Of a stretch of 64,000 nucleotides of DNA, positions 5,208 through 30,153 are shown in pieces. Source of the DNA: Planctomycetota bacterium (GTDB lineage: Bacteria > Planctomycetota > Phycisphaerae > WQYP01); NCBI GenBank assembly GCA_021790385.1, contig JAJYDW010000007.1:10483-74482 (forward strand), in the 5' to 3' direction. Below the pieces are notes generated by a model, which saw only the letters and a program-made list of their open reading frames with translations, ran no database searches and was not told the origin of the DNA. The translations under genes and the position numbers were made by a program. Positions within the stretch are counted from its first letter, which is position 1. Every line of letters begins with the position of its first letter.

Positions 5208-5240
5208 GTGTTCTCCGTTGGGGTGTGGATGCCGAAGTTT

Positions 5241-6102: not shown

Positions 6103-6272
6103 GCGTGCAATCTCACGCCAATTTGTCGCTGCCGTCAAGCATGAGTGTGGGACGATCAGCATCGTTAGACTGTATCGCCCCTCTTTTCCGTCAAACCTAA
6201 TTGCGGCACGGCCTCCATCATTGGTGCGTCAGATCCGTTCCACTCACCGCTGTACTGCGATTATAATGGCCT

Positions 6273-13079: not shown

Positions 13080-13183
13080 TTGTCCGAATTCCAACAGGGC
13101 CAACAGACCAGGGCGTTCCGGTCAGGGTTGCATTGTTGGACATTGTAATCGGCAAAGGCGAATGGTTCACCGGTGGACCTTTA

Positions 13184-13238
13184 AGGGGCTGTCAGGAAAT
13201 AAAGTGTATGAATACGGCGCAAGCATTTTAGCGGCCGG
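13184..13238 (+). repeat. Roughly 55-nt repeat (AGGGGCTGTCAGGAAATAAAGTGTATGAATACGGCGCAAGCATTTTAGCGGCCGG) homologous to the reverse complement of 5353-5407
   Basis: Seen in sequence: the two copies are near-identical by eye. On the minus strand it places a CTGACA -35-like box about 100 nt upstream of recN. Confidence 0.45.
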
Positions 13239-13254
13239 TTTGATGGCGAATTTT

Positions 13255-13390
13255 GCGGGCAGGATGGTCGCGGTCCCAGGGATGACTATGGCGGACAAGA
13301 TGCCCGCCCCCCTACCAAGCGATTGGCAGACAAGAATGTGGGGTTGCGGACGCGATGCTGCACGGCCACAGGCAAGAATGTCTGTGCTAC
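13255..13390 (+). repeat. Intergenic repeat family, copy A. It ends with the conserved 30-mer CACGGCCACAGGCAAGAATGTCTGTGCTAC.
   Basis: Shares GCGGGCAGGA..GG.CGCG.TCCCAGGGAT...TGGCGG.CAAGAATG...CACGGSCACARRSAAGAATGTCTGTGYTAC with 20620-20700 and, partially, 30050-30104. Confidence 0.5.
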
Positions 13391-13407
13391 ACTGGGGGAC
13401 ATGCAGG

Positions 13408-16329
13408 TTAGCCATGGGGTTCAAAGGGCACCTCAATGGCGAAAATCTGAATTGCGCCGGTGCTGTCTGAATCGTGGCGCAGCATGATGGTATTGTTGCC
13501 CGCGGCCAGCGGCAATTTTAGCGCGATAGTTCGTCCCACGCCCGGCCGAGGTGCGGCGGAAACCTTGAGTTTGGCCGTCTGTCGGCCATTGACATAAACG
13601 TTGAGTGTACCGGCCTGATGGGCATGGACATTGGCAGCGCGAATTTTCACGGCATAACGACCGCGGTGGCTGCGCCGCAGATAAAAGCTGGCACCGGATT
13701 CCGGTATGTTGAGGCGCGAAATATGGGCAACTTGGCCGGCCAAGCCATGTACCAACAAGGCTCGCCGATCTGGGGAGGGACCCATGAGAGACGCCTCGGA
13801 GAGAGAAAGACTTTCAACCTGCGGCAGCGTGGTCTGGTGGCCATGAAGATCGACGGTGATGGCGACACCCGCCGGTAGATGAACGCTGGTAACACCGCCA
13901 AAAACATCCCGCGAGACGCGGACTGTATCCGCGGCCGCAGCGTGGCCGTTTACGTATACATTGGTTGCTGCCTGGCCATGCACGCGCACAACGAAGTGCC
14001 GCACGGTGGAAATATAGGTGCCCTGTGGGGCCGAGATTGCAACATGGGTGTGTTGTCCGTGGCGGTGCGTGCTGATGACCTGCTTATGAAATCGGCCATG
14101 CTGATAATCAAAAGAATCTCCATCATCTTCATAAAAGACGCCTTGGGTAGATTGTCTGGAGGGGAAAATATCAAGATAGGCCACCGTTGGCCGGGCGGTG
14201 TGCAGTGCCGGCACGGGATCAAAGGTGGGAATAATGGCACCATCTTTAATAAAAAGAGGAATATCCATCCAGGAATCGGTGTTGAGGGGATAATCGAGCC
14301 ACTGGCCGCCGCGATAGCGTGTGCCACGGAAGTAATCAATCCAGATATTACCGTCGGGCAGATAGACGCGCCGGGTAGAGCTTTGTTCGAGGGAAGAAAG
14401 CACCGGTGCTGCCAGCAGGTAGTCCCCGAACATCCATTGATTGCTCAAATCAGCCACCTGGGAATCGTGGGGATAATCAAAAAGCAGGGGCCGGACCAGA
14501 CCGATGCCGGTTTGAGTACAGGCGATATGATCAGCGGCGTACGTATATGGGAACAGGGCATAGCGGAGGCGCATGGCCTGCTTGGCGGTTTCGCAGGCCT
14601 GGGTACCATAAACCCATGGCTGGCGGCGCTGGCCGAGCGTGCAATGCACCCGGAAAATGGGACACAGCGCACTGAATTGGAGCCAGCGGGCGTAATTCTG
14701 ATCTGAAGGGTGGCCCTCAAAGCCACCGGAATCCATACCCCAGCGCATCTGTCCGAGATTGATCATGGTCAACATGCGGAGGGTTTGCAGCGCCATGGAG
14801 TCAAATCCGGTGGGGATATCGCCGGACCAGGTGGCGTAGCCGTAGCGCTGGGATCCGAGGTAGAAATTACGGTTGAGGGACCACACTCGCCGGTTAGGCC
14901 GATCGCGCCGCTGCCCCTCATACAAAGCCTGCTGCATGTGGAGAAATTCAAAGTTACCGAGCTGTCCATAATCGGCTTCATCATTCCAGAAGCCGACGAT
15001 ACCGCGCTGCATACAACCGTGGGACCAGGTGGCATTCCAATACCAGCGGCGGCACTTTTCCATGTAGAAATTAACATCAATGGAATAGAGATGAGAAAAA
15101 TAATCTTTGAATGGCTTTTCACCCGGGAACCAGATACCTAGACGGCGTGATTCGGCCCCCTGGGTGGTAAGGGGTTGCAGATGTCCTTTGCGGGTACTGA
15201 GAATAATGCGAGGTTTCATGATACCGGTAATTTTGCAATTTAGATTGGAGGTCCAGGAAAGCAGGCTTTCGGGATTGTCCGGGGGCAGCAGTGCCTGGCT
15301 GTATTTCACGGGGTTCCAGCGGAATTCGCCGTAGTGATTGGCTCCCCAATCCTTCCAGTCAAAATCAAGGGTGAAATTATCAATGGGAATATCTTTGGCC
15401 CGGTAGGTGGTAAGATAATGGCGCAACAGATGCTGATCGGTGCCCCACTGGGAATTGGTAAAACCATAGGCCCAGCGTGGAAACATGGGCATAAAGCCGG
15501 TAATTTCGGCCACGCTGCGGAAGATATCGCGTGGGCTTCCGACCAGAATGAAAAGGGTAAGGGAGTTGGGGCGGTGGTACCGGCAACCATAATCGTCAAG
15601 CGATTCGTTGCCGTAATTGAAGGCGACGCGGTTTGGCCCCATCATGAAAAATCCCCCATCGCTATCCACCAGCAGGCCGTAACCGTCGGTGGTCCAGATA
15701 AAAGGTGCGCCGCCGCCGCCTTCGACACCGGCATCCACCTGGTAGGTGCCGTCGGGCATGCCTGTGCCATTGCGCAGCATGGAACTGCCCATAGAGTATT
15801 TTTTACCGTCCCACCCGGGCATGGCAATGCAACTGATTCCGTAAAACCTGGTTCCCTGATTGCACTGGAAGGCAAAACCGGTCAGACCGGTCTGCCGTGG
15901 ATGCACGTACAAACTTGGCCCTTTGTGCGGGCGCAGTAAATATCTGCCGGTGGCATCGCAGAGGGTGAGGCCCGCAGTGGCCCGTGCAAGGTCCAGGGCC
16001 AAGGCCGCGGTTTTGATCTGCAGCTTTTCGGCCCCGACATGTACCTGCGCCCGGGCATCGCCGGGAAAATGGGCGTGCGGATCCAGCAGCGGTGTGGCGG
16101 GATCGTGGTGTCCGCGGTACAGCAGATCCAGCCGTACGATATGCGGCGAGAGCACGGTGGCCCGGAGAACATTTTTGCCCCAATGAGCCACGAGCACGCG
16201 GTTGTCAACCCAGGCCCGGTCGATGCCGACGGACGGGGCAGCGGCGAGGCAGGTTGAGGCACCGGCCCATACCGATCCGGCAGCGGCGGCGGCAGTGCTT
16301 CTAAGGATAAATTCTCTACGATCAAGCAT
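13408..16329 (-). CDS. Glycoside hydrolase family 31 (alpha-glucosidase or alpha-xylosidase), Tat-signal exported
   Basis: Twin-arginine signal MLDRREFILRSTAAAAAGS. GH31 catalytic region GFWNDEADYG...YATWSGDIPTGFDSMA. About 970 aa with extra C-terminal beta domains. The start is placed at the ATG of MLDRREF. Confidence 0.8.
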   Translation of the reverse strand: MLDRREFILRSTAAAAAGSVWAGASTCLAAAPSVGIDRAWVDNRVLVAHWGKNVLRATVLSPHIVRLDLLYRGHHDPATPLLDPHAHFPGDARAQVHVGAEKLQIKTAALALDLARATAGLTLCDATGRYLLRPHKGPSLYVHPRQTGLTGFAFQCNQGTRFYGISCIAMPGWDGKKYSMGSSMLRNGTGMPDGTYQVDAGVEGGGGAPFIWTTDGYGLLVDSDGGFFMMGPNRVAFNYGNESLDDYGCRYHRPNSLTLFILVGSPRDIFRSVAEITGFMPMFPRWAYGFTNSQWGTDQHLLRHYLTTYRAKDIPIDNFTLDFDWKDWGANHYGEFRWNPVKYSQALLPPDNPESLLSWTSNLNCKITGIMKPRIILSTRKGHLQPLTTQGAESRRLGIWFPGEKPFKDYFSHLYSIDVNFYMEKCRRWYWNATWSHGCMQRGIVGFWNDEADYGQLGNFEFLHMQQALYEGQRRDRPNRRVWSLNRNFYLGSQRYGYATWSGDIPTGFDSMALQTLRMLTMINLGQMRWGMDSGGFEGHPSDQNYARWLQFSALCPIFRVHCTLGQRRQPWVYGTQACETAKQAMRLRYALFPYTYAADHIACTQTGIGLVRPLLFDYPHDSQVADLSNQWMFGDYLLAAPVLSSLEQSSTRRVYLPDGNIWIDYFRGTRYRGGQWLDYPLNTDSWMDIPLFIKDGAIIPTFDPVPALHTARPTVAYLDIFPSRQSTQGVFYEDDGDSFDYQHGRFHKQVISTHRHGQHTHVAISAPQGTYISTVRHFVVRVHGQAATNVYVNGHAAAADTVRVSRDVFGGVTSVHLPAGVAITVDLHGHQTTLPQVESLSLSEASLMGPSPDRRALLVHGLAGQVAHISRLNIPESGASFYLRRSHRGRYAVKIRAANVHAHQAGTLNVYVNGRQTAKLKVSAAPRPGVGRTIALKLPLAAGNNTIMLRHDSDSTGAIQIFAIEVPFEPHG

Positions 16330-16361
16330 GGTGGGGTCTCCTGCAATATAAGCACACATTT

Positions 16362-19118
16362 CTAGTGAGAAAAACCGGCTTGGAATTGACCACGGCGATA
16401 GCGGGCCAGGAGCATGGCCTGCCATGGCTTTAAGGTCAGCCGCAGTGATTTGGCTTGGGTATTAATCAATAAACCGTGACGTATACGTACCAATATGGGC
16501 CGGGCGTCGGAATCTTTCACCGGAGGCAGCAAGAGTTTGCAATACCGCGGGGAAAGGTAGTTGAGCAGGTGGTGGCCGCGATCGAAATGAAAGACTGGGA
16601 TTTCAATGTGTACCGTTGCGGCGCTGCGATTGACTACAAGATAAACATGGTTATGGCCGAGGGAGCGGTAACAGGCAAACACGCGCCGATGGCCTACAAC
16701 GCGGAGCCGGCCCCAGGAACCGATCTGCAAAGCGGGCAACTGCCGTCGGGCCGCAATGGCCCGGCGGTAAAAATGCAGCAGAGGCGTGTTGACGGTTAAG
16801 GCCGGATTGTCATAAGGCTGGAGATCTTTCCAGATCATGGGCTGGCGGTTGGCTGGATCACTGGCACCCCACATTCCCACCTCATCGCCGTACCAGATCA
16901 TGGGCGCACCGGCAAAGGCCATCTGAAAGGCGACCACTTCTTTGAGCCGCGTGTATGCCTCCGCGGTTGGTTTAGCAGTACTGTAATGAGGGTTGCTGTC
17001 CTGCAGGCGGTCTGCACCGTTAAAGGGCAAATTGGGGTTCATGAAGCGAGAAATAAAGCGATCGGTATCCTGGCTGTTGAGCAAATTCTGATTGACCAGA
17101 TCCACTTGATAAGGGTAATAACTGAGAATTTGGGACAGGTGCGAGGCAAACTGTCGACTGGAGAGGCCCCGCCCGCCGCTGCTTATGGTGTCTGCAAAGT
17201 ATTTGGTGGCAGCCTGGGCAAATGGGTAATTCATGACGCCATCAAATTGATTGCCGCGGTTGAGCCACGCCTGGGCCGGGGTCCAAATTTCTCCGATGAT
17301 CAGGGCGTGTGGATTAATGGATTTGACGAGTCGACGCCAGGCAATCCAGAAGCGGTGCGGCACATCCGGGGCGGTATCGAGCCGAAAGCCATCCACACCA
17401 TTTTTGACGTTGCCGTTGGGAGCCAACCAGCGTCGGGTGGCGGCAAAAAGGTAGTTGCGGACGCCACGCTGGAGGCCATAGCGTATGCTGCGGGCAAAAA
17501 CGGGCATGGCACCGTTGGGCTTATCCCAAGCCTGGTATTGCACAGGCGGCCCCCAACTGGTGATGTCAAACCATTTGGCGTAGGGTGATTTTCGACCGTA
17601 CTTAAGGACATTTTGAAAGGGAGGAAAATCGACGCCGCAATGGCCAAACGGCACGTCCATAATTACTTTGAAGCCCTGACGGTGCGCAGCGGCCACCATA
17701 GCCAGAAAAACTTTATCTGAAGCAGACCACTGCCAGGTTGAGGGATTACGGGTATGCTCGCCTTTGATTTTAGCCAGCGATCCCTTGACGCCGAAGCCAT
17801 CATCAATATGGATGAAACTGGACGGATCATATTTATGCACACTGGGGGCTTGAAAAACCGGGGTAAGATAAAGGGCATTAACGCCCAGGTGCCGCAAGTA
17901 AGGCAGTTCCTGCTGGATGCCCTGAATATCGCCGCCGTAGAAGCGATTGTAGACATAACTGTAGAAGTTGCCTTTTTCACCGGCCGGGCGGTATGGCCTG
18001 TTCCAATTCCACCGCCAGGGGATGTGATGGCCGGGATCGTTGGCCCGACTGCCATTGCGAAAACGATCGGGAAAAATTTCGTACCAGACGGCTTTTTTGG
18101 CCCAGTGCGGCGTAACCACGCGGGCCTGCATTGGAGAATCATAAGCGTGAGCACGGGCCGCGTGCGCGGAAGCATAGAGATAACCACGGGCTAAAAAGAC
18201 CCGGTCGGTGCCGTGAACAAGCTGAAAATAATAGCTTACCGTTGGGCCGTGCACCGGAATTACGTTGGCCCAGGTGGTGGCACCGGCATGGTTTTCCACC
18301 ACGTGCAATCCTATGGACCCAGGATGCGGTCCCGGCAGAATCACACGCACATGGCTTAAGCCGCCAGTTTGGGCCCGCAGTACCAGACGCACATCGTGGT
18401 GGGCAATTACATCAAATTCACGGGTATTGGCGGTACGGAAGGAAATGGCTTGAGGATTGATACGATTGGCCAACGGCGGCGAAAGTTTGAGCCAAGGGGA
18501 AACCACGTCTATGCACGAATTAAAACCACCCATGCCGTTGGACACACGTTTGGCTGCATGCGGATCGGTAATCCACTGATGGTGGTTGAGGACAAATTTG
18601 TACTGGTGAACTCCGGGGGAGAGCCGAAGGGAGGCAATCCAACGATTTGCGTGGCGCAACATAGGATTGGCGCTAACGGACCAGGAATTAAAATCCCCGG
18701 CGACGCAGAGAGCTTTTATAGTGCCGGCAGACGCCAGCGAGGCAGGTTGGTAGGAGAATGTAACACGCACCAGACGGGGTGGAGCACTGATGGCGGCAAT
18801 CGGCGGGCTTGGTACCGGGCGCTTGGCGCAGCTCGCCAGCGCCAGCCCGAACAGCAGGAGTGAAGCAACAAGTAGCCCCCAGAAAAAAGATAGCCGCCAG
18901 GATGCCCGCCTGAACAACGGTTGCGGGCGGCCAAGGCTAACCAACAAGCCCCATTTTGCCCGCTGTTGCACTCTATCTGCCTCCACAAGTGAGATGGATT
19001 GTGGCCTTGGCGATGACTTGTTATCCATTCGGAAAAACCCTTGTAATGATTGGCACATGGCCGCTGAGTTTGCGCAAAAGTGTCCGATGATCAGGCACAT
19101 CTGACCACAGCCAATCAA
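16362..19118 (-). CDS. GH13 alpha-amylase-family enzyme with an N-terminal CBM48/E-set glycogen-binding module (pullulanase, neopullulanase or glycogen-debranching type)
   Basis: CBM48-like CVAGDFNSWSV...HQYKFVLNHHQWITDP. GH13 regions YLTPVFQAPSVHKYD, GFRLDTAPDVPHRFW, IIGEIW and FAGAPMIWYGDEVGMW. Signal peptide with a possible LALASC lipobox. The true start is probably at an internal Met. Confidence 0.8.
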   Translation of the reverse strand: MIGCGQMCLIIGHFCANSAAMCQSLQGFFRMDNKSSPRPQSISLVEADRVQQRAKWGLLVSLGRPQPLFRRASWRLSFFWGLLVASLLLFGLALASCAKRPVPSPPIAAISAPPRLVRVTFSYQPASLASAGTIKALCVAGDFNSWSVSANPMLRHANRWIASLRLSPGVHQYKFVLNHHQWITDPHAAKRVSNGMGGFNSCIDVVSPWLKLSPPLANRINPQAISFRTANTREFDVIAHHDVRLVLRAQTGGLSHVRVILPGPHPGSIGLHVVENHAGATTWANVIPVHGPTVSYYFQLVHGTDRVFLARGYLYASAHAARAHAYDSPMQARVVTPHWAKKAVWYEIFPDRFRNGSRANDPGHHIPWRWNWNRPYRPAGEKGNFYSYVYNRFYGGDIQGIQQELPYLRHLGVNALYLTPVFQAPSVHKYDPSSFIHIDDGFGVKGSLAKIKGEHTRNPSTWQWSASDKVFLAMVAAAHRQGFKVIMDVPFGHCGVDFPPFQNVLKYGRKSPYAKWFDITSWGPPVQYQAWDKPNGAMPVFARSIRYGLQRGVRNYLFAATRRWLAPNGNVKNGVDGFRLDTAPDVPHRFWIAWRRLVKSINPHALIIGEIWTPAQAWLNRGNQFDGVMNYPFAQAATKYFADTISSGGRGLSSRQFASHLSQILSYYPYQVDLVNQNLLNSQDTDRFISRFMNPNLPFNGADRLQDSNPHYSTAKPTAEAYTRLKEVVAFQMAFAGAPMIWYGDEVGMWGASDPANRQPMIWKDLQPYDNPALTVNTPLLHFYRRAIAARRQLPALQIGSWGRLRVVGHRRVFACYRSLGHNHVYLVVNRSAATVHIEIPVFHFDRGHHLLNYLSPRYCKLLLPPVKDSDARPILVRIRHGLLINTQAKSLRLTLKPWQAMLLARYRRGQFQAGFSH

Positions 19119-19184
19119 TCCGGCATTATGCCGCAGCCGAGGCGTATATCAGCAGATCGCTGCCCTGGCTAGAGCCGGTTCATG

Positions 19185-20393
19185 CTAGCTGCGCAGGCTG
19201 CGCATCATGCCGGTGGATTCCCGCAATACCAGGTGCGTGGGCAATACCTCAGCTACATGTTCCACCTTGCCGCGAATGCGTTCCACCAATTTTTCGCAGG
19301 CTAAAACCCCCAGTTCATACAGGGGCAGATGCACGGTGGTTAGACTGGGGTTGGCGTAGGCCAGATGCTGAATATCATCAAACCCGACGACTGAAACATC
19401 ATCCGGTACCCGGTGTCCATGGGTGGTGAGGTAGCGGATGGCACCCAAGGCCATTTTGTCATTGCCGCACAAGAGTGCGGAAATTTGGGGATCACGGGAG
19501 AGCAGAATGCGAGTCGCTTCCGCCCCACCCTCATCGGTAAAACAACCATCCACCAGCCAGTGTTCCGATGGAGTTATTCCCGCGGCCACCAGGCTGGAAG
19601 TATAGGTTTCCACAACATCACGGGCGGTGGGGCTTTCCGGAGCGGCGTAGACCATGCCGATGCTGCGATGTCCAAGCTGTAAAAGACAGTTCATAGCCTG
19701 CTGGGCACCGAGGCGATAATCGCAATGGACATAATCCAGCAGGTTATCGCCAAAGCGGTTGTCTACCAGAATCATGGGATAACGCCGGGCGGCGAAGTCT
19801 GATAAAAAGCTGTGCTTTTCATTAAAGCCCAGGCAAAGCACACCATCCACGAACCGGCGTTCATATAATTCGAGATGTTTTCCCTCTTTGACAAATTGAG
19901 GTTTGGCCTGCTCGATGAGCAATTTATGGCCGAGTTTGCCGGCGCGATCGGCGATTCCACTGAGTATTTCTCCAAAGTAGGCATCGGCAAAGGCGTGCCG
20001 AAGCGGGGGCAGCATAACGGCAACCACCTGGGTGTACCTCCCGGAAAGACTCTGGGCGAGCCGATTGGGACGGTAGCCCATTTTGTCGATCATCTTCTGG
20101 ACTTTAATATGCGTAGAGCGGCTGATGCGCGGGCTGGCATTGAGCACCATGGAGACTGTGGCCACGGAAACTCCCGCTTGCCGGGCTACCTCGCGGATGT
20201 TGACTTTTTCCGGGACTTTTTCTTCCACAGCGGCATTATTAAACCGCACGGTTATTTCTTTGGAAGCCTCGCGGCTGGGCGCAAAAGCATCCGCAGATTT
20301 GCTTTCCGGAGAAGAATTAAGCGGTGGCGTGGGCACGACGTATAATCTCCAAAATGGGTCCAATTCCCAACCGTTGTTAAAACAGTTTACCAT
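19185..20393 (-). CDS. LacI-family transcriptional regulator
   Basis: HTH VNIREVARQAGVSVATVSMVLN followed by a periplasmic-binding-protein-like sugar-binding core. The 90-aa N-terminal extension in the ORF track is probably non-coding; a GTG internal start is likely. Confidence 0.85.
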   Translation of the reverse strand: MVNCFNNGWELDPFWRLYVVPTPPLNSSPESKSADAFAPSREASKEITVRFNNAAVEEKVPEKVNIREVARQAGVSVATVSMVLNASPRISRSTHIKVQKMIDKMGYRPNRLAQSLSGRYTQVVAVMLPPLRHAFADAYFGEILSGIADRAGKLGHKLLIEQAKPQFVKEGKHLELYERRFVDGVLCLGFNEKHSFLSDFAARRYPMILVDNRFGDNLLDYVHCDYRLGAQQAMNCLLQLGHRSIGMVYAAPESPTARDVVETYTSSLVAAGITPSEHWLVDGCFTDEGGAEATRILLSRDPQISALLCGNDKMALGAIRYLTTHGHRVPDDVSVVGFDDIQHLAYANPSLTTVHLPLYELGVLACEKLVERIRGKVEHVAEVLPTHLVLRESTGMMRSLRS

Positions 20394-20619
20394 TCTTGTT
20401 TAACAGTGTCAAGCGTGAACAAGATGGATGGCCGTATGGGGGAAATAGCGGTCAGCGTTTTAGCGGTCAGCGATCAGCAATCAGCTTTCAGCGGGCGGTG
20501 GCGGTTGGTATTTGCGACGGCGATGGAGACATCGCCGGAAAATGCGATCTGTGGCGTTTTAGTTGATCGGCGGCTAAATTTATGATTGAGCGTGCATCAT
20601 TAATGTTCGCCACGGCGAT

Positions 20620-20700
20620 GCGGGCAGGAGGCCCGCGATCCCAGGGATATCGTGGCGGGCAAGAATGTTGCTTCACGGGCACAGAGAATGTCTGTGCTAC
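20620..20700 (+). repeat. Intergenic repeat family, copy B (ends CACGGGCACAGAGAATGTCTGTGCTAC). Two tandem TAGCGGTCAGCG motifs lie about 150 nt upstream (20446-20472).
   Basis: Aligned by eye to 13255-13390; see findings. Confidence 0.5.
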
Positions 20701-20972
20701 GTTTAATTGCCCTGGCGGAATGGCCGGGCTGGGGGAGGTGGCCGTGGCGATTGCTGCGAACTTTTAAAATACCAAGATAGCTGGAAAAATTCTTAAAGAT
20801 TTTATTTGACTTGTATATGGGCATTGGATTAAAATGATTAAAAGACTATAGCAGCGGCAAAATATGGGCTTTTGCTGGTGTTTTTCGGCTGATGGCCGCG
20901 AGTACGCGACTTAAAATTCCACGGATGGTACCTCCCATTGGGAGTAATCGGGCAGAAAAAATATGGCGGGGC

Positions 20973-21001
20973 TTGACAAGGGCAGTTTAATCGGTTAAAC
21001 T
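20973..21001 (+). promoter_or_regulatory. Promoter-like TTGACA-N17-TAAACT, copy 1, containing the degenerate palindrome GTTTAATCGGTTAAAC
   Basis: Seen in sequence; about 320 bp upstream of the PEP-CTERM gene at 21318, in a locally AT-rich region. Confidence 0.4.
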
Positions 21002-21220
21002 GATAACCAGAGATAGAATGGCTATGTAATATGGACTTTGATTATGGCGCGCACTGGTCTGTTCAATTGCGATGGCAAATACACCCTTGCGGGCGGGGCC
21101 TATAACTGTATCGGGTTGAAAACCCTGAATGTCGGCGCGTGCCGACGGGTTAGAGCGGCAACGGATGTAATAAACAACTAAGGAATGGAGGCGCAATATG
21201 AGCGACAAAACAGGTAGCCG

Positions 21221-21249
21221 TTGACAAACGTGGTTTAACCGGTTAAACT
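21221..21249 (+). promoter_or_regulatory. Promoter-like TTGACA-N17-TAAACT, copy 2, with the perfect 16-bp palindrome GTTTAACCGGTTAAAC (21233-21248) in the spacer
   Basis: Seen in sequence; about 70 bp upstream of the PEP-CTERM gene start at 21318. Confidence 0.55.
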
Positions 21250-21317
21250 TGCATTCAATGAGTATCAGAGGCTTTTCAATAGTTTGAGTTTTGTGTACCT
21301 TTTTAGGAGGTTCTATC

Positions 21318-22154
21318 ATGGTTCTTCAAGTTCTTCCTCATCGTCGATCTTTGGCAATCCTTGTGGGATTGAACGCGGGAGTGGTGGCAGCAGGCTGTTT
21401 TGCCCAGTCCACCAGCGCCGCGATGATCGCATCAGACAATGCGGCTAATTATACCGGGGCTATTTCTACCGGCAGCACCGGCGGCACAGGGTTTGAAGCC
21501 TGGACGGTTACCACGAGCGGCAGCGGCTCTATGGGCAACTACCTGGATGCCAGCAGCAAAGGCATTGCCACCAACACCAAGAGCTGGGGGACGTACGCCA
21601 ACACCGGAACCAATCCACGCATCGACCTGACGCGGCCATTTGAGACCAGCGCCGGCGGCTCTGGCGGCACACTCCGGGCCGGCCAAACCTTCAGCGTGGC
21701 CATGGAATCAGATGGTGTCGGCAACAGCGGAGCCTTGGGTTTCTCCCTCCAGAGCAGCTCGCCGATCAACCAATTCACCTTCGAATTCGATGGAGCCGCT
21801 GGCTACAACAATATGAGCATTATCGACGGTAGCAACAGCGGCAAGGAATATCAATCACCCGTGGCCCTCCCCTTCACCAGCTATATTGGCAAGGGCATGA
21901 CTGTGAATTTTACGCTGGTGACTTCCTCCACGTACGATCTTTCCGTGACGCCGGTGGGCGGCAGCCCCGTAACCGTGATTACCAACGGGACGCTGCCGGG
22001 CGGGGCAATCAACCAGGCGGATTTGTTTGACCAGAACACCAACGGCAACGGCTACTTCAACAGTATTTCCATTGTCCCCGAGCCGGCCTCGCTGGGGCTG
22101 ATGGCGATCGGTGGATTGGCCTTGCTGCTGGTAGGACGCCGGAAGACGGCTTAA
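21318..22154 (+). CDS. PEP-CTERM sorting-domain secreted protein (exosortase substrate), paralog 1
   Basis: RBS AGGAGG then ATG. Signal peptide. C-terminal VPEPASLGLMAIGGLALLLVGRRKTA (PEP motif, TM helix, basic tail). N-terminal region shares the SDNAAN..G...TGGTGF motif with the next gene. Confidence 0.75.
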   Translation: MVLQVLPHRRSLAILVGLNAGVVAAGCFAQSTSAAMIASDNAANYTGAISTGSTGGTGFEAWTVTTSGSGSMGNYLDASSKGIATNTKSWGTYANTGTNPRIDLTRPFETSAGGSGGTLRAGQTFSVAMESDGVGNSGALGFSLQSSSPINQFTFEFDGAAGYNNMSIIDGSNSGKEYQSPVALPFTSYIGKGMTVNFTLVTSSTYDLSVTPVGGSPVTVITNGTLPGGAINQADLFDQNTNGNGYFNSISIVPEPASLGLMAIGGLALLLVGRRKTA

Positions 22155-22175
22155 GTGTTAATCAGGTAAGAGCAA

Positions 22176-22214
22176 AGCGTTGCCGGGAGCACCGACGTGG
22201 ACCCCGGCAACGCT
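22176..22214 (+). terminator. Intergenic stem-loop: perfect 12-bp stem AGCGTTGCCGGG / CCCGGCAACGCT, 15-nt loop, no clear U-tract
   Basis: Seen in sequence between the two PEP-CTERM paralogs. May be a partial terminator or attenuator, or an mRNA stability element. Confidence 0.45.
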
Positions 22215-22239
22215 TAAATGGAGTTTTGGAGATAAATTT

Positions 22240-23229
22240 ATGAGTCTGATATTCAGAACCATTTTTGATTCACGTACGCCGCGTGCCCGCCGGGTAGCGA
22301 GTGCGGCTGTCGCGGGCATGATCGGCTGGGCCATGGGTCACAGCGCGGCGGTACGCGCTGTGATCCTGGCCTCTGATAATGCCGCCAACACCGCGTATTC
22401 CGGCGGCACATGGTCTGGAACCAGTAACGGCGGCACCGGCTTTAGCCAATGGTTTCAGGGGCCAACGGGTTCTGGCGTGAACCAGGCCGCCACATGGGGA
22501 TTCACCACCCAGACAGCTTCCACCGTGTTTGGGACTTATGTTACCCCGAATATAGATACCAATGGGGTATCCTGGAGTATGGGGGCCTATAACGGCACCA
22601 GCAGCGATCCGGCTGCTCCGTATGCCTATCGCGGCTTAAATACGCCGTTGCAAATCGGCCAAACCCTGCAGTTGAGCATGGCCACGGGTTACATGAGCAA
22701 CCCTGGACAGGAAGGCTTTCAGATTCAAAACTATAACGCTACCACCGGCTACGGCACGCCGCTGTTTCAGATTGCCGCGGCAGGCTCGGGCAGTTATTAC
22801 GCCATCAGTTACGGTGGTTATACCTCCCCCACCACCGGCTTTGCGTACTCGGCGTTGACCGGCATTGCTTCTGCCCACACCGGCGTTACCACGCCCAACA
22901 ATGGCAACGGCATAACCGTAGCCTTTACACTGGAATCGCCAACGTCATTTAATTTGACGATTACTCCGCTGGCGGATCCTTCGGCAGCGGAGACGTTTAC
23001 CAATCTGACCCTGACGGATTTGCCGGTAAACCAGTTGTTCTTATACAACGACAACTTGGGACTGACCTCCCAGTACGCCTATTTTAATAACCTGGAAGTT
23101 ACCGCCACGCCGGAACCGGCACCGGCGGCGATGCTTCTAGGCGGAGTGGCGATGCTGGCCTTGATTCGGCGACGTAAAATTGGAGCCAAGGCGGCACTGT
23201 TTGGCCGCGGCAAAATTCAGGGCACCTAA
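22240..23229 (+). CDS. PEP-CTERM sorting-domain secreted protein, paralog 2
   Basis: C-terminal TPEPAPAAMLLGGVAMLALIRRRK. N-terminal motif ILASDNAAN..YSGG..GTGF shared with paralog 1. Confidence 0.75.
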   Translation: MSLIFRTIFDSRTPRARRVASAAVAGMIGWAMGHSAAVRAVILASDNAANTAYSGGTWSGTSNGGTGFSQWFQGPTGSGVNQAATWGFTTQTASTVFGTYVTPNIDTNGVSWSMGAYNGTSSDPAAPYAYRGLNTPLQIGQTLQLSMATGYMSNPGQEGFQIQNYNATTGYGTPLFQIAAAGSGSYYAISYGGYTSPTTGFAYSALTGIASAHTGVTTPNNGNGITVAFTLESPTSFNLTITPLADPSAAETFTNLTLTDLPVNQLFLYNDNLGLTSQYAYFNNLEVTATPEPAPAAMLLGGVAMLALIRRRKIGAKAALFGRGKIQGT

Positions 23230-23292
23230 GCACATGGCCAGGGCCTCGGCGGAATTACATGCCCGAGACCTGGGATAAAAAAGGATAACACC

Positions 23293-26200
23293 ATGGAACC
23301 GACGAGAAACAATTTGGCAAGTTCCACCCGGCAGCGCCGCAACATGGTTCTGCGGGCGTGTCGTGTAGTGGCCTGCGGGATAGCGGGTGCCGCGGTCATC
23401 AGCCTGTGCCGCCCCGCCGCCGCGCAGGTTTTCGGAACGCCGTATTCACCGCCGACCATTCTCGATGCGTTCGGTATGCCATGGACCAATCTTACCGCCC
23501 GCATGCCCGATATTTTTGGAGCCGGTTACGGGGCCATTCTCACCCCGCCGCCCACCCGTGCCGACAGCGGTAACGGTTCGGTGGGCTATGACATTTATAA
23601 TCGCTTCGACCTGGGCAGTCCCGGCGACCCCACGGCCTACGGCACGCTTTCCGGATACGAACAGCTTATTGCCGCCACACACCAAATGGGTGGATACATT
23701 TACGTTGATTATTCCATGGGACACAATGGCTTTTCCAATTCCGCCTCGGTGGATGGCAATGGCAATTCGTTTGTCAATGCCGGAGGCTACCCGGGCTTTG
23801 TTACCTCTTATCCCGGAAATTCCTATCTGAACCCGAGTGATCCGGCCAATATTGACGGCGATTTTAACGGGGCGTATGCCCAAAATGTGGAAGAAGCCCG
23901 GCTGGCCGGCCTTATTAACGTGAATTTTAACACCGATTATCAATATATCCGCAGCCCTACCACGGCGGGAGATCCGGCCAACATCCCCGGCGGAACCACC
24001 CCGGCCTTTGGCCGCCTGGCCAATGTGCCCATGCCGGTGAATCAGCAATTTTATCCCAACCCCAACAGCCAACCGATTTTTATTTACAACCCGCAAACCG
24101 GCCAGGGCAATATTCAGGTCAATTCCTTTACGCCTTCCAATCCGATGGCCGGTTCGCCCACCGCGGAAAATGTTACCGGCTACGAAATGCGCAATATTCA
24201 GTGGTTTGTGCAAACGCTGGGGGTTGATGGCTTCCGGCTTGATGCTACCAAAAATATGGAATGGCAGACGGCCCTGCCTTATTTCAATCAGGCGGTTTAC
24301 CGGGCCTCGCCGCGGACCTACCTCAATGGCGTGCAGGAAACCATTTTTTCGTTCCAGGAATATTATGACGGCAATCCCGCCAACGTTTTTCCGGTGATCC
24401 AGAAAAGTCCCATGAACCCAGACGGAGCTCCCGCCGGCAACATTGGCACCGTGCAGCCCAACCTGGACGCTCTGGACTTTCCTTTGTTTTTCTCCCTACA
24501 ACAAAACCTCACCGGCAACGGGTTTACCAATAGTTGGTACAACGTCAGCGACGGGCTGGACCCCAACCATACAGGTAACACCGGCGTGCGATTCGTGCAA
24601 AGCCAGGACAACGGAGCCCCTTATCTGGCCAATGTGGCCGCCGCTTATACCCTGATGATGCCCGGCCAGTGCATTGTGTACTACAACGGCAATTTGACCC
24701 CTTACGACAACGGCACGCAGACATTTCCGCAAAATGGCCGGGGCGATGCCCTGGGCGGCGTGTACGGCAACACCATGGCCAATAATTCTTTAAGCACGTA
24801 CAACGCCGGCTCGAACACCATGACTGTAACCCACAGCAATGAAATCAGCGGTCTGGTGGATATCCGCAATCGTTATTCCAGCGGCGGCTACATTCAGCGC
24901 TATATTACCCAGAACAATCTGGCGTTTGAACGCAGCGATTCCGCCCTGGTGCTGCTGAACAATCAGACCGGAGGCATTTCGGGCACGGCCAGCATTCAGA
25001 CGAATTTCAACTCCTACAACGTACCCTACCTGGTGGAACTCACGGGTAACGCCGCCGCCCAGGGCCTGCCGCAGGTACTGCAGGTTTATTCCAACGGCGT
25101 GGTCAACGTCACCTTCCCCAACAACGGCTACAACAACAGCACCGGCGGCGGTGATCTGATCTACGGCCCGGCGACACCCGAGGGCACGCTGACGATTACT
25201 AATGTCGCCGGTCAAATCGCGGGTACCACTCCCACCACCAGCACGCCCAATCTGCCGCAGGCCAATGGCGCGGATGTTATCAGCAACGTGGCGGTGGTGA
25301 AAGGATCGCAATTTCAGATTCAACTGCAAACCCAAAAAGTCTATCTGCTGGGCCAGCAGAATTTATTTGACTACAACGCCGGCGGCGACAGCGCCATTTT
25401 CAAAATAGATGGTGGCACACTGGTCAATGGCCAGCAGTTTGTCAGCACTGAGCCAAACACCATCGCCTACGGTTTCCTCCCCTTTCAAACCGGCAGTCCG
25501 TTGGCTCCGCAAAATGGAACCGCGCCAGGTACCGGCCTTTATACCGAAACCATCAATACCAGTGATCTCTCGCAAGGCTATCATTACCTTACCGTGATCG
25601 CTTTCCGCACACGCCATGCGCCTGGCGCTCCACCCGTTTACACCGACTGGACGCAAACCATCTATGTGGATACCGCCCCGTCGGTATCGGCCATTATGAG
25701 TTTTAACCCCACCGTTCCCGGGGTCAACCAGAACCGCACCTTGACGGTGGAAAACGTGGACAGTCTGGCCAACAACATCAATGTTTTGTTTGACCTGCCG
25801 GCAGCGGATACGGCCAGTCAAATACTGGCCCTGCTCAACAGTTCCACCCAGGCCACGCAAACCGACACCAATTTATGGACGATTAATGCTACCGGGCTTA
25901 CCAGCGGCAACCATGTAGCCACCGTCGTAACCTTTAAGCCGGATGGTACGTACAACATCCAACGTTTCGCGGGATTGTACACCTCCACCATTTATGGTGC
26001 AGGGCTGGGGGATTTGAATTTTGACGGCCAATACAACCTGGCCGATGTTCAGACCATGGCCCAGTTGCTGGCCAGCAACAACACCGAATTCAATCCAGCG
26101 GCAGATTTTCTGGGTACCGGTGTTATTACACCGCAGGATTTAATTCCTTTTGGCCAAAAGCTTCAGGCGGAAGGAGCCAATAGTGCCACCATGGCGGCAT

Positions 26201-26385
26201 ACCAGTCCCTTTACGACCAGTATTTTGGCAGCAGCATTTCTTCGACTATCGCCAAAACGTTTGCGGCAGATAACCTGCTTTCGAATCAGACCACGCCAAC
26301 GCCGGAGCCATCGGCGGCGTGGCTGATGCTGGGTGGATTACCGCTGCTTTTGAAGCGTCGCGGTGGAGCGATGCGGATTAGTTAA
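23293..26385 (+). CDS. Large (about 1000 aa) secreted GH13-like alpha-amylase-family protein with a dockerin-like or EF-hand-like Ca-binding motif and a C-terminal PEP-CTERM anchor
   Basis: GH13 N-terminal signature AGYGAILTPP...GYDIYNRFDLGSPGDPTAYGT...YIYVDYSMGHNG and GVDGFRLDATKNMEW (region II-like). GDLNFDGQYNLADVQ resembles a dockerin or Ca-binding loop. C-terminal PTPEPSAAWLMLGGLPLLLKRRGG. Confidence 0.65.
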   Translation: MEPTRNNLASSTRQRRNMVLRACRVVACGIAGAAVISLCRPAAAQVFGTPYSPPTILDAFGMPWTNLTARMPDIFGAGYGAILTPPPTRADSGNGSVGYDIYNRFDLGSPGDPTAYGTLSGYEQLIAATHQMGGYIYVDYSMGHNGFSNSASVDGNGNSFVNAGGYPGFVTSYPGNSYLNPSDPANIDGDFNGAYAQNVEEARLAGLINVNFNTDYQYIRSPTTAGDPANIPGGTTPAFGRLANVPMPVNQQFYPNPNSQPIFIYNPQTGQGNIQVNSFTPSNPMAGSPTAENVTGYEMRNIQWFVQTLGVDGFRLDATKNMEWQTALPYFNQAVYRASPRTYLNGVQETIFSFQEYYDGNPANVFPVIQKSPMNPDGAPAGNIGTVQPNLDALDFPLFFSLQQNLTGNGFTNSWYNVSDGLDPNHTGNTGVRFVQSQDNGAPYLANVAAAYTLMMPGQCIVYYNGNLTPYDNGTQTFPQNGRGDALGGVYGNTMANNSLSTYNAGSNTMTVTHSNEISGLVDIRNRYSSGGYIQRYITQNNLAFERSDSALVLLNNQTGGISGTASIQTNFNSYNVPYLVELTGNAAAQGLPQVLQVYSNGVVNVTFPNNGYNNSTGGGDLIYGPATPEGTLTITNVAGQIAGTTPTTSTPNLPQANGADVISNVAVVKGSQFQIQLQTQKVYLLGQQNLFDYNAGGDSAIFKIDGGTLVNGQQFVSTEPNTIAYGFLPFQTGSPLAPQNGTAPGTGLYTETINTSDLSQGYHYLTVIAFRTRHAPGAPPVYTDWTQTIYVDTAPSVSAIMSFNPTVPGVNQNRTLTVENVDSLANNINVLFDLPAADTASQILALLNSSTQATQTDTNLWTINATGLTSGNHVATVVTFKPDGTYNIQRFAGLYTSTIYGAGLGDLNFDGQYNLADVQTMAQLLASNNTEFNPAADFLGTGVITPQDLIPFGQKLQAEGANSATMAAYQSLYDQYFGSSISSTIAKTFAADNLLSNQTTPTPEPSAAWLMLGGLPLLLKRRGGAMRIS

Positions 26386-26484
26386 AAGAGAGGGCGAGAA
26401 TTGTTGGCGACAGGGTGAATGGAAGCCCAAGCCACCCCAAAAGGGCAAGATGGTGTCAAAATGAACACGAAGGCATAGTCGTAC

Positions 26485-26512
26485 TTGACAAACCAGTTTA
26501 ACCGGTTAAACT
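26485..26512 (+). promoter_or_regulatory. Promoter-like TTGACA-N17-TAAACT, copy 3, with the perfect palindrome GTTTAACCGGTTAAAC (26496-26511)
   Basis: Seen in sequence; about 50 bp upstream of the DUF1559 gene (RBS AAGGAG, ATG at 26559). Confidence 0.55.
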
Positions 26513-26558
26513 ATGTTTGTCGCTATGTTTGGGTCTGCTCTTACAAGGAGTGTTGATC

Positions 26559-27662
26559 ATGATTAGCAGGCAATTATCTGGGCGTCGGTGGCCATCCTTA
26601 AAACAAGAATCCGCTGTGGTTACTAAAAAGGGGTTCACTCTCATTGAGTTATTGGTGGTGATTTCCATCATCGCCATTCTCATTGCCCTGCTGCTGCCGG
26701 CCCTGGCCGCAGCCAGACAGGAAGCGGATTCCGTGCTGTGCCTTTCCAATGTGCGGCAAATGGCCCTGGGAGCCATTGAATTCACCCAAGACCATCAGGG
26801 GCTTTTTCAGCCGGACACCGATACGAATGTGGTTACAGCGTATGTGGATCCCAGCCATCAGCTTTTTGCCTACCGGTCAACTTCGACCGGCACGTATCTG
26901 TTGGATTGGGCCAGTGCGCTGATTCCATATATGGGCGGCACCAACAGCCAGAACTTTGTGGGTATGGCCACCAGCGGCACTCCGGGCAGCTACTACGCCC
27001 CCGGCACTTACCCCAAAGTGTTTTTGTGTCCGAGCGACCCAACATTAAATGATACGTGGCCAGGTTATGCTCTTATTAATAATGTCACCAATCCGGCCGG
27101 CGATACCGGAGATGGAAGCTTCGCCTATTTCCCGGTATCCTACGGTGTCAATGCTGATGTTTGCTCGATTGTTGACCCCGTCAATGGCAACGACTTCAAC
27201 CAAGGTTCCACCATGGACGTGGCGAATGGCCCGGCCGGAGTCGGTGGTGGCCAGCCACTGGGTTGCAGGCTCTCGCGGGTTGTGTCGCCCAGTACCACGT
27301 TGCTTTTTGCCGACTGCGGCACCCGGCCCACGCAACCGGAAGCCGTGCCCGGCGCACCGCTGAACTATAACGATGGCTTGTATTACACCACTAACTACGA
27401 CGTGTACGCCGGTATTCCGGCCAGCTACCCCGCAAATACCATTAACACGCTGGAGGGAGTTGCGCTAACCTCCTGGCTGCGTGATCGGATTCCCATTGCC
27501 GGCAGTTTGATGCCCAGTAACATCAACGCCAGTCCGCAGCAGCCGCAAAACATCATGGATCGCCACGGCGATCACATCAACGTATCGTTTTGTGATGGCC
27601 ATGCGGAAGCAGTTAACGTTTCGCAGTTTGCTAACGTCAACGTATCACCCTATGGCCGGTAA
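26559..27662 (+). CDS. Prepilin-type N-terminal cleavage/methylation domain protein of the DUF1559 (H-X9-DG) family, typical of Planctomycetes
   Basis: [27 protein letters not shown] pseudopilin N-terminus. C-terminal [13 protein letters not shown] (H-X9-DG). Confidence 0.8.
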
Positions 27663-27823
27663 TGGCGTGAGTGGTCAGTCAGCAACAGTTTGATTACCAT
27701 GTAGAGAGCTTAACACCACCCTCGTGGTCGATGGCGTTCTTGCCAACGGGCATTCAAGCCTGAAAAGATGGCCAAGGGGTGGGCGATGATCTACATTCGG
27801 CGGCACCAAAAGAGGAACCCAGT

Positions 27824-29635
27824 ATGACGCATGTATTGTCGAGCGCTCGCCTTGCAACTGCAATACCCCATCTGGCCGGCACCCTGGCAGGCGGGCCGGT
27901 GTTAAAGGCGCATCCGATTGATTATCTGATTATGGGCGTTTACTTTGTGTTTGTCATTGCCATCGGAGTCATTACCGGGCGGGGCCATCAGACCAGCGAA
28001 GACTTTTTTCTTTCCGGCAGGCGCATTCCGGCATGGATTACGGGGCTGGCGTTTATTTCCGCCAACCTGGGGGCTTTGGAAGTAATGGGCATGTCCCAGC
28101 AGGGCTATGAATACGGCATGATGACCGCCAACTATTATTGGATTGGGGCTATTCCAGCCATGGTGTTCATGGGCATCGCCATGATGCCCTTCTTTTACGG
28201 CAGCAAAGTACGTAGTGTGCCGGAATTTCTGAAAAAGCGATACAATGAAGGTGCCCGTTTTATCAACGCCATCACATTCACGATTTTCACCCCGGCCATT
28301 TCGGGCATCAGCATGTACGCTTTGGCAGTGGTGATGCAGGACTTTTTGGGATGGCATTTCGGGCCGAGTGTATGGGTGTCGGCAGCGGTGGTGCTGGTGT
28401 ATACATTTCTGGGCGGTCTAACGGCCAGCATTTACAATGAAGTGCTGCAGTTTTTCCTGATTGTGCTGGGCATTGCTCCACTGAGCATCATCGCCCTGAT
28501 TGCGAACCATGGATGGTCGCACTTCAAAAAGTGGATTGCCACGCATCAGTTACCATTTTTAACCCCGGATCAGCTTACCGCTGCCGCATCGCAGCCTGCT
28601 AAGGCCGCACATCAACTGGCCGCAGGTCAATGGCTGCATACCTTTCACAACACGCTTACGCAAAGCAATCCGATGCACATCACCTGGCCGGGCATTGTAC
28701 TGGGGCTGGGTTTTGTGCTGTCGTTTTCGTACTGGTGTACCAACTTCCTGGTGGTGCAGCGGGCGCTGGCGGCGAAAGACATGAATGATGCGCAGCGGAC
28801 ACCATTGCTGGCGGCGTTCCCGAAAATGATTTTCCCTTTTATTGTCATTTTGCCGGGCGTGCTGGCTCTGCCACTGCTGCCGCACTTATTTCCCGGCAAT
28901 ACGATGGTGGATGGGCATCTGATTCCGGCGACGCAGTCATTTAATAATGTGATGCCGCTGATGCTGGCAAAGTATTATCCGGCGGGTCTGCTGGGACTGG
29001 GGCTTACGGCGCTGATGGCGTCGTTTATGTCTGGCATGGCGGGCAATGTTACGGCTTTCAATACGGTTGTCACATACGACCTCTATGCGGTGTTCATCCG
29101 GCCGCAGGCTCCGGACCGGCATTATCTGTGGGTGGGCAGAATTTTGACGGTTGTCGGTGTGGTGATCAGCGTAGCATTTGCGTACGTGGTACGCGGTCAG
29201 TCCGGCATTATGGGGTACACGCAGACGATTTTCGGTGTGGTCAATGCGCCACTGATTGCGGTTTTTCTGCTGGGAATGTTTGCGAGTTTCACCACACCGG
29301 CCGGCGGATTGTGGGGCTTGCTGGTGGGCACGGGAACATCGGTAACGCTATGGATATTCCGATCCCATCCCGGCCTGCCGCTGTGGCATCATTATAACAA
29401 CAACACCACCGGTGCCTTTTGGGGTGCCATCTGGGCATTTTGTGCCGGTGCGGGTGCCACCATCATCGTAAGTTTGTTTACCAAGAAAAAAACGGACAAA
29501 GAAATGGTAGGGCTGGTTTATCAGCTTACCCCCAAGCCGGAACAGGACCACCAGCTACCATGGTGGAAAAAGCCGGTGGTGCTGGGCGTATTGGCACTGA
29601 TTTTAACACTGCTGATCAATCTTTGGTTCTGGTAA
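27824..29635 (+). CDS. Sodium:solute symporter (SSS family; SGLT-like sugar/solute transporter)
   Basis: About 600 aa with about 14 TM segments. The SSS signature region is GRRIPAWITGLAFISANLGALEVMGMSQQGYEYG. Confidence 0.85.
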   Translation: MTHVLSSARLATAIPHLAGTLAGGPVLKAHPIDYLIMGVYFVFVIAIGVITGRGHQTSEDFFLSGRRIPAWITGLAFISANLGALEVMGMSQQGYEYGMMTANYYWIGAIPAMVFMGIAMMPFFYGSKVRSVPEFLKKRYNEGARFINAITFTIFTPAISGISMYALAVVMQDFLGWHFGPSVWVSAAVVLVYTFLGGLTASIYNEVLQFFLIVLGIAPLSIIALIANHGWSHFKKWIATHQLPFLTPDQLTAAASQPAKAAHQLAAGQWLHTFHNTLTQSNPMHITWPGIVLGLGFVLSFSYWCTNFLVVQRALAAKDMNDAQRTPLLAAFPKMIFPFIVILPGVLALPLLPHLFPGNTMVDGHLIPATQSFNNVMPLMLAKYYPAGLLGLGLTALMASFMSGMAGNVTAFNTVVTYDLYAVFIRPQAPDRHYLWVGRILTVVGVVISVAFAYVVRGQSGIMGYTQTIFGVVNAPLIAVFLLGMFASFTTPAGGLWGLLVGTGTSVTLWIFRSHPGLPLWHHYNNNTTGAFWGAIWAFCAGAGATIIVSLFTKKKTDKEMVGLVYQLTPKPEQDHQLPWWKKPVVLGVLALILTLLINLWFW

Positions 29636-29680
29636 CATGATAGGGCCACAATCGCGGCCACTGCCGCACTGGAGAATAAT

Positions 29681-29905
29681 ATGATGGATTTACGTTTGCC
29701 CATCGGTATATTTTTTCTGCTGGTGGGAATAATTCTGGCCGGCTACGGAGTAGTGTCCACACACGACATCCCGAATATCACGGAAAAAATCAACATCAAC
29801 CTGGACTGGGGCGCGGTGCTGCTGGTATTTGGTGCGGCCATGACTTTTTTTGGATGGAAGGCGGAGGCAAAAGCCCGCAGCGAGAAAAAGAATTCCAAGG
29901 CCTGA
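29681..29905 (+). CDS. Small two-TM membrane protein (74 aa). Its placement next to the symporter resembles the small SSS-associated subunit (DUF4212-like).
   Basis: Two hydrophobic helices and a basic C-terminus, 45 nt after the symporter stop. Weak. Confidence 0.35.
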   Translation: MMDLRLPIGIFFLLVGIILAGYGVVSTHDIPNITEKININLDWGAVLLVFGAAMTFFGWKAEAKARSEKKNSKA

Positions 29906-30049
29906 TGCGCGGTGCCAAATGTTGGCGGAGCGATCTTGAGTTTTAGCAATCAGGTTTAAGCGGTCAGCGGGCACCGGCCGCCCGGCGGCCGCGCTAAACG
30001 GAGTGTGCCTTTCAGCGGGCAACGCGCGGGCCCAATGCCCGCGTCTAAA

Positions 30050-30104
30050 TGGGATGGAGGGCGGATTGACACCACACGGCCACAAACAAGAATGTCTGTG
30101 TTAC
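30050..30104 (+). repeat. Intergenic repeat family, copy C (partial; core CACGGCCACAAACAAGAATGTCTGTGTTAC at 30075-30104). A TAAGCGGTCAGCG motif lies at 29957-29969.
   Basis: Seen in sequence, immediately upstream of the kpsF start. Confidence 0.45.
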
Positions 30105-30153
30105 CGCAGTGGCACACTGGCAAGGGTGCGTTGAATCGTATATCGTTAGCCCC

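Follow-up and report, generated by a model that had tools for sequence, protein, structure and literature searches.

What kind of sequence forms the repeat that recurs between genes in a 64,000-nucleotide (nt) stretch of a Planctomycetota bacterium genome (Phycisphaerae, WQYP01; assembly GCA_021790385.1, contig JAJYDW010000007.1, positions 10,483 to 74,482)? In this stretch, hereafter the window, three intergenic copies of the repeat (A, B, and C) each end in a common 30-nt sequence, the 30-mer. A preliminary description made from the sequence alone suggested a small non-coding RNA family, a mobile repeat resembling miniature inverted-repeat transposable elements (MITEs), or a regulatory region bound by a shared factor. 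We consider it probable that copies A to C, together with a fourth island, D, are clusters of repetitive extragenic palindrome (REP)-type hairpin repeats, similar to bacterial interspersed mosaic elements (BIMEs) and located in fast-changing intergenic islands.

The 30-mer occurs at 13361–13390 (A), 20674–20700 (B, 3 nt shorter), and 30075–30104 (C), all on the plus strand and all intergenic within the 64 kb window, as originally described. Its core, AAGAATGTCTGTGYTAC, has three matches with up to three mismatches (0.16 expected), a number reached in none of 100 shuffles. The motif TAGCGGTCAGCG is present exactly at 20446 and 20461 and as a one-mismatch form, AAGCGGTCAGCG, at 29958 (three matches against 0.18 expected; 0 of 100 shuffles got to three), and TTTCAGCGGGC lies at 20486 in island B and 30010 in island C, so that both motifs do precede copies B and C. 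A 30-nt block is common to A (13254–13283) and B (20619–20648) with 87% identity. The internal duplication ascribed to A was likewise found, its CAAGAATG segment lying at 13331 and 13373. Copy C was said to retain the terminal 30-mer; the 30-mer is there, but a degenerate 5′ module of the A/B type at 30024–30057 makes this copy longer than first described. The family of three holds for the 30-mer and is otherwise extended by island D (3263–3412), found with a profile of the A/B 5′ block, which has TAGCGGTATCAG (3263–3274), a variant of the TAGCGGTCAGCG motif, and about 120 nt past it a canonical 5′ module (GCGGGCGAGGACGCCCGCGCTCCCAGG, 3386–3412), without a 30-mer. The reported gene context was also borne out: A lies between recN and a GH31 gene, B between LacI and PEP-CTERM genes, and C upstream of a gene for a protein with SIS and CBS domains, followed by a HAD-type hydrolase. 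The SIS and CBS domain protein is consistent with KpsF, a name not returned by any family search. Same-strain contigs, identified through proteins exactly matching those of the window, agreed with it at 100% identity, without allelic differences.

Two hairpin-plus-tag units, the 30-mer and the 5′ module, make up the mosaic structure of the element. In the 30-mer, read on the minus strand, GTAG precedes a hairpin that has an 8-bp stem and a 4-nt loop and is followed by GCCGTG; in copy A the sequence is GTAG-CACAGACA-TTCT-TGCCTGTG-GCCGTG. A hairpin is predicted in all three copies, with an 8-bp stem containing one G-U pair or one mismatch and a loop of 4–5 nt; the 27-nt version in B has a perfect stem of 7–8 bp (GCACAGA/TCTGTGC) and the plus-strand tag CTAC, replaced by TTAC in C. 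REPtrons, combining GTAG-tagged REPs with REP-associated tyrosine transposases (RAYTs), were reportedly described by Nunvar in 2010 and by Bertels and Rainey in 2011. The tagged-REP survey of Di Nocera (2013; PMC3733652) describes GTAG REPs as imperfect palindromes of 20–40 bp with stems of 5–13 bp, loops of 2–20 nt, and, at one end, an unpaired tag, which some families have in degenerate form; such REPs occur singly, in pairs, or often in clusters, and are reported there from Planctomycetes. Read from its sequence, the 30-mer fits this description. GTAG (GTAA in C) is directly followed by the imperfect palindrome and a short GC foot, and like GTAG REPs the unit is extragenic, lineage-specific, variable between close relatives, and found beside other repeat types.

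The same layout accompanies RAYT genes elsewhere in the phylum. An open reading frame (ORF) on contig L048 matches NCBIfam NF047646 with 188 bits, and homologous ORFs on L217 and L223 (61–66% identical to it) carry PF01797. All three RAYT ORFs are flanked by inverted units composed of GTAG-G, a 9-bp stem, a 3-nt loop, the stem, and GCGG, the arrangement seen on the minus strand of the 30-mer, and the stems of these units covary between loci (L048, L217, and L223, all Planctomycetota contigs). More than 7900 homologues of this Phycisphaerae RAYT are present in the protein database, and several sources label them as Planctomycetota or Phycisphaerales proteins.

The second unit of the mosaic, the 5′ module, consists of a GCGGGC(N) stem of 6–7 bp with a loop of 3–5 nt, followed by G-N-TCCCAGGG. 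It is canonical in island D (GCGGGCG-AGGA-CGCCCGC-GC-TCCCAGG, 3386–3412) and is seen in B as GCGGGC-AGGAG-GCCCGC-GA-TCCCAGGGAT (20620–20648). Copy A has the degenerate form GCGGGC-AGGAT-GGTCGC-GG-TCCCAGGGATG (13255–13284), and in C we read from the sequence a degenerate unit, GCGCGGGC-CCAAT-GCCCGCG-TCTAAATGGGATGG (30024–30057), with a predicted hairpin. All four are on the plus strand. At least 120 metagenome contigs, and 7 viral contigs, contain the pattern GCGGGYN{4,7}RCCCGCGNTCCCAGGG. Among the matches listed, to which all counts of metagenome units refer, the seventh stem pair, formed by the first and last bases of the loop and unconstrained by the search pattern, is Watson–Crick in 138 of 142 unique units against 80.8 expected, and all four pair types occur (102 G-C, 24 A-T, 9 C-G, and 3 T-A). 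The class is therefore one of a 7-bp stem with a triloop, and its compensatory changes show that the hairpin is under selection. A hidden Markov model (HMM) built from metagenome units alone finds the units of B (E=5e-6), D (E=4e-5), and a distant relative, L015 (E=9e-5), as well as those of A (E=0.23) and of a closer relative, L004 (E=0.29). Thus B and D match the class, A is marginal, and C is recognisable by eye alone. In L015 the module lies about 130 nt upstream of kpsF, and a stem pair that is C-G in D is T-A there, a compensatory change; within the lineage of the window, the L004 copy has an uncompensated one.

The hairpin-plus-TCCCAGGG class is also associated with RAYT genes, a statement that holds for the class and not for the source genome. 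Contigs were screened for RAYT motifs by regular expression, the strict form of which gave no match and a loosened form candidates. The ORF at 1–342 of L184 matches NF047646 with 86 bits (cut-off 80) and PF01797 with 33 bits, and two units of the class lie 29 and 101 nt past its stop codon. L175 encodes a RAYT-like N-terminal fragment, matched only by phmmer, to the L184 ORF (E=2.3e-8); its units, with the stem covaried to GCGCGC, are about 50–300 nt upstream of the gene, the start codon being uncertain. No paper was found with the sequence strings of this class, although the figures of the key REP survey are not searchable. Tandem arrays of the unit occur in L116, L120, and L122 with periods of about 45, 174, and 198 nt. 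In the L116 array (1500–1850) there are units in which GCCCGCGCTCC is mutated to GTCTGTGCTCC and whose stem, GTCTGTG, is the 3′ arm of the window 30-mer. As a conjecture hinted at by this array, the stem of the 30-mer could be related to the GCGGGC unit through transition changes.

The composition of the islands is that of a modular repeat. BIMEs of Escherichia coli and BOX elements of Streptococcus pneumoniae are modular mosaic intergenic repeats, with integration host factor and gyrase as binding proteins. As in those families, the modules recognised here (TAGCGGTCAGCG with its heptads, the hairpin-plus-TCCCAGGG unit, the CAAGAATG segment, and the 30-mer) are combined in differing subsets and copy numbers at each site and are duplicated internally; the sequences are unrelated, and the likeness is by architecture only. 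In island B the 5′ end (20446–20496) comprises two copies of TAGCGGTCAGCG, NNTCAGC heptads, and TTTCAGCGGGC at its end, and the unit of the hairpin class is separated from the 30-mer by GGCGGGCAAGAATGTT (20654–20669), a weak hairpin with the GAATG loop of the terminal hairpin. Island C begins with TTTTAGCAATCAGGTTTAAGCGGTCAGCGGGC (29941–29972), followed by the TTTCAGCGGGC block (30010–30020). In copy A we read from the sequence a second hairpin, GGCGGAC-AAGAT-GCCCGCC, followed by CCCCTAC with a CTAC/GTAG-type tag (13290–13315), and then the duplicated TGGCAGACAAGAATGT segment (13324–13339). Pseudomonas REPINs, which are built of inverted REP doublets, offer a further parallel: 89 of the 142 metagenome units are preceded, at a distance of up to 200 nt, by an inverted partner, tails outward, and 24 have a direct partner. 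The four window units, in contrast, are singletons, and under the REPIN model would be decayed remnants.

Comparison with relatives shows how quickly the islands change. The best kpsF relatives are three metagenome-assembled genomes with 99%, 98%, and 92% amino-acid identity. Over about 15 kb the nearest relative, L003 (90–96% DNA identity), cannot be aligned with the window only at 20471–20724 (B) and 29954–30089 (C), homology at the latter ending just past TTTTAGCRATCAG. At both sites L003 has a different repeat, whose 5′ end TTTTAGCGATCAG is followed by tandem units of about 50 nt (GGGAGATTTCGGCATCCATGSCTTCCCGAT..GRCTCCTGTC; L003 positions 301–524 and 9737–9936), and the two sites are 88–92% identical. 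This conserved 5′ end with a variable number of tandem units recalls the boxA-boxB(n)-boxC structure of BOX. An 11-mer common to the L003 repeat and the window at about 5225 was dismissed as within chance expectation by our estimate. In L004 (85–89% identity, about 85% at the flanks of B) the 5′ half of B is kept at about 82% identity by manual count, without the 30-mer, and the island is segmentally rearranged; the start of the B 5′ module is present at the same site in both L003 and L004. Upstream of kpsF, L004 and L005 have unrelated, shorter spacers without the element, and the 45 nt by the start codon are conserved. At site A, six relatives' contigs with recN 86–91% identical lose homology at about window position 13181, immediately upstream of a conserved GTGAAC-17-TACAAT block, and end 120–675 nt upstream of recN. 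Alignment with relatives is also lost at 3220–3503, 5227–5402, and 6141–6237, and the islands contain other small inverted-repeat insertions absent from relatives. These comparisons therefore indicate fast turnover, not conserved regulatory DNA.

The turnover bears directly on the suggestion of a shared regulator, according to which one factor acting on CAAGAATGT and the 30-mer, as a promoter or transcription factor array, would co-regulate recN, the LacI/PEP-CTERM cluster, and kpsF. The segment CAAGAATG does occur four times in three islands in a single orientation against three times in the rest of the window with both strands counted, B and C lie upstream of plus-strand genes, and copy C overlaps a sigma-70-like TTGACA-16-AAGAAT (30066–30093; 10 of 12 positions matching) about 55 nt upstream of kpsF. 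However, a −35 element is missing from A and B at every workable spacing, leaving a sigma-70 reading that works in copy C alone, and the 3-nt indel in B shifts the internal spacing. The gene orientation is inconsistent as well, copy A pointing away from recN and lying just past the 3′ end of the GH31 gene. Downstream of B, the PEP-CTERM genes are served by separate predicted promoters with LacI-type operators. Sister genomes lack the elements or have other sequence in their place, and in them the adjacent promoter-proximal DNA, GTGAAC-17-TACAAT at recN and GAATCGTATATCGT at kpsF, is conserved. We regard such a module as very unlikely. Sigma-54 and extracytoplasmic function (ECF) sigma factor readings of the 30-mer misfit in spacing when checked by eye, in agreement with the earlier rejection of sigma-54.

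Plus-strand transcription of a small non-coding RNA family, or of RNA structures acting in cis, would account for the folding of copy B, which has four consecutive hairpins (z=−3.8; 0 of 200 shuffles fold as well), the last of them followed by a T-rich stretch and flagged as terminator-like. Copies A and C, however, are no more structured than shuffles (z=−0.46 and −0.16), and neither A nor B has a promoter. A search of the whole window against Rfam 15 gave no match at the gathering score, and at E≤10 none in island A and chance eukaryotic matches only in island B. The sequence is unconserved in relatives whose flanks are 85–96% identical, and the orthologous copy in L004 carries an uncompensated stem change. 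This option therefore appears highly improbable.

It can also be asked whether the 30-mer is coding, as a frame HGH(R/K)(Q)ECLCY runs through ORFs of 13–22 codons, read as MLHGHRQECLCYTGGHAG in A, MLLHGHRECLCYV in B, and (TTG)TPHGHKQECLCYRSGTLARVR in C. The copies differ by three third-position changes, one R/K exchange, and an in-frame 3-nt indel, as expected of tiny genes. Given four substitutions and the freedom to choose any frame, though, such a pattern has by our estimate roughly a 1-in-10 chance of arising. No Shine–Dalgarno sequence precedes any of the start codons, in L003 the peptide loses its HGH part and one Cys is changed to Tyr, and coding would not explain the 50–200 nt shared upstream of the 30-mer. 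We give the tiny-gene explanation almost no credence.

A mobile repeat, the remaining option of the preliminary description, fits the evidence, but not as a classical MITE with terminal inverted repeats, to which REPs and BIMEs are the closer comparison. Like MITEs derived from DDE-type insertion sequences (IS), the elements are small, non-coding, intergenic, absent from relatives, and assembly-breaking. Unlike them, the A/B/C element has asymmetric ends without terminal inverted repeats, TAGCGGTCAGCG at the 5′ end and GTCTGTGCTAC at the 3′ end not being inverted copies, and no copy is flanked by target-site duplications.

The window does contain a MITE-like element, R1 (5241–5407), of 167 bp with 16–17-bp terminal inverted repeats (AGGGGCTGTCAAGAAAT) and TTA/TAA flanks. 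Its neighbours are a response-regulator gene on one side and a biotin/lipoate ligase-family gene on the other, and it is absent from that position in L083, L084, and L086. A half copy of R1 (13182–13238; plus strand, 93% complementary to 5353–5409) abuts copy A, and an independent Logan contig identical to the window (L089) ends inside it. In addition, 24-nt inverted arms (3290–3313 and 3460–3483), 92% complementary and 146 nt apart, bracket the TCCCAGG hairpin unit of island D, and may represent another small inverted-repeat element. These features, the heptad tandem repeats and internal duplications, and the segmental rearrangement of island B in L004 would suit a passive origin, in which pieces of decayed MITEs or IS, along with tandem repeats prone to slippage, are shuffled by illegitimate and homologous recombination, the hairpins being incidental and nothing being mobilised now. 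Because no RAYT has been seen for the source genome, we treat this passive mosaic as the main rival. It is nevertheless unlikely in our view: the class to which the 5′ module belongs shows clear covariation in its stem and, elsewhere, lies next to RAYT genes; units that flank RAYT genes in the same phylum share with the 30-mer the full layout of GTAG, hairpin, and GC foot; and the A/B/C element itself lacks terminal inverted repeats and target-site duplications.

Several observations weigh against the REP-type reading. Neither the window nor the corresponding loci of close relatives contain a RAYT gene, and the RAYT association therefore rests on other organisms; searching with RAYT homologues gave none for the source lineage in two contig sets, both from other sample series. 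Just three 30-mers and four 5′ modules are visible in the 64 kb covered, GTAG REPs having tens to hundreds of extragenic copies per whole genome, and a gapped 30-mer pattern had no match in genome-contig and metagenome-contig collections, neither of which includes the source genome. The window units are in one orientation without inverted pairs, the arrangement that dominates the metagenome set. In the 30-mer, the stem is short and its sequence unrelated to the RAYT-flanking stems inspected; the differences between A and C are non-compensatory, one folding better on the plus strand and the other on the minus; and the tag is GTAG in A and B and GTAA in C, three copies being too small a number for gauging conservation beyond 90%. 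Finally, REP biology does not explain the 5′ module of TAGCGGTCAGCG and heptads, and among the metagenome matches listed neither TAGCGGTCAGCG nor TCAGC heptads accompany units of the 5′ hairpin class.

Were the islands REP-type clusters, a RAYT encoded at another locus, an HUH/Y1 transposase from the IS200/IS605 lineage, would recognise their units in folded, single-stranded form and copy them in trans into extragenic DNA, with a preference for sites beside or within existing units. The mosaic would then arise as copies are duplicated, deleted, and recombined locally, and copies in one genome would be homogenised. This reading leaves unexplained the matched pair of a different repeat past TTTTAGCGRTCAG in L003 and the nature of TTTTAGCGRTCAG and the TCAGC heptads. 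Two sister genomes have, at the same two sites 9.5 kb apart, a matched cassette pair that differs between the genomes. A tentative proposal, which we put forward as a minority possibility, joins two suggestions: that the hairpin with G-N-TCCCAGGG is a third REP/REPIN tag class beside the GTAG and CGTC super-families, with its own RAYT clade of the L184/L175 type and widespread in soil and freshwater bacteria, and that islands marked by TTTTAGCGRTCAG are landing pads. If the landing-pad suggestion were true, there would be target-specific insertion 3′ of TTTTAGCGRTCAG, as in IS200/IS605-type elements, or directed gene conversion between sites.

The repeat islands account for the few unalignable intergenic gaps between genomes otherwise 85–96% identical and for the breaking of relatives' assemblies upstream of recN, and such gaps should not be taken for regulatory RNAs or operators. 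They add Phycisphaerae examples to the REP–RAYT picture, and the hairpin-plus-TCCCAGGG unit, very common in environmental bacteria, may be uncatalogued. Because they adjoin the promoters of recN, kpsF, and the LacI-controlled cluster, the elements could alter the expression of host genes.

The DNA around the islands has features of its own. Upstream of recN, a block at 13104–13181 (minus strand; GTGAACCATTCG..GCCGATTACAAT) is conserved in all relatives. At kpsF (30110–30153), GAATCGTATATCGT stands beside the start codon even in the distant L015, and kpsF mRNA may therefore be leaderless or very short-leadered. Four sigma-70-like TTGACA-17-TAAACT sequences (20973–21001, 21221–21249, 26484–26521, and, on the minus strand, 20384–20412) overlap a palindrome, AGTTTAACCGGTTAAACT, which looks like a LacI-family operator that would control the LacI gene as well as the genes for PEP-CTERM and DUF1559 proteins; in L003, three of these palindromes are conserved. 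Between island B and the PEP-CTERM genes, at 20806–20885, a strong promoter-like TTGACT-18-TAAAAT is followed by a five-codon ORF (ATGATTAAAAGACTATAG) and then by a hairpin and a run of T resembling a terminator, which could be a tiny transcript or an attenuator.

A tRNA or integrase attachment site at A was considered and rejected, ARAGORN giving no tRNA near any island. Its one call of tRNA-Ser(tga), at 14663–14749 on the minus strand, falls within the sequence coding for the catalytic domain of GH31 and is probably spurious. A fragment resembling a tRNA 3′ end (GGTGGGTTCGACTCCCGCCCGGCGCA) lies upstream of recN in L083 (455–490) and also in L084 and L085, where ARAGORN calls none, and may be an attachment-site remnant. 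Over the first 32 kb of the window GC skew is positive, and from there to 64 kb it is negative, independent of gene orientation; the switch around 32000 may be replication-related. All four repeat islands lie in the positive-skew part, in the same direction.

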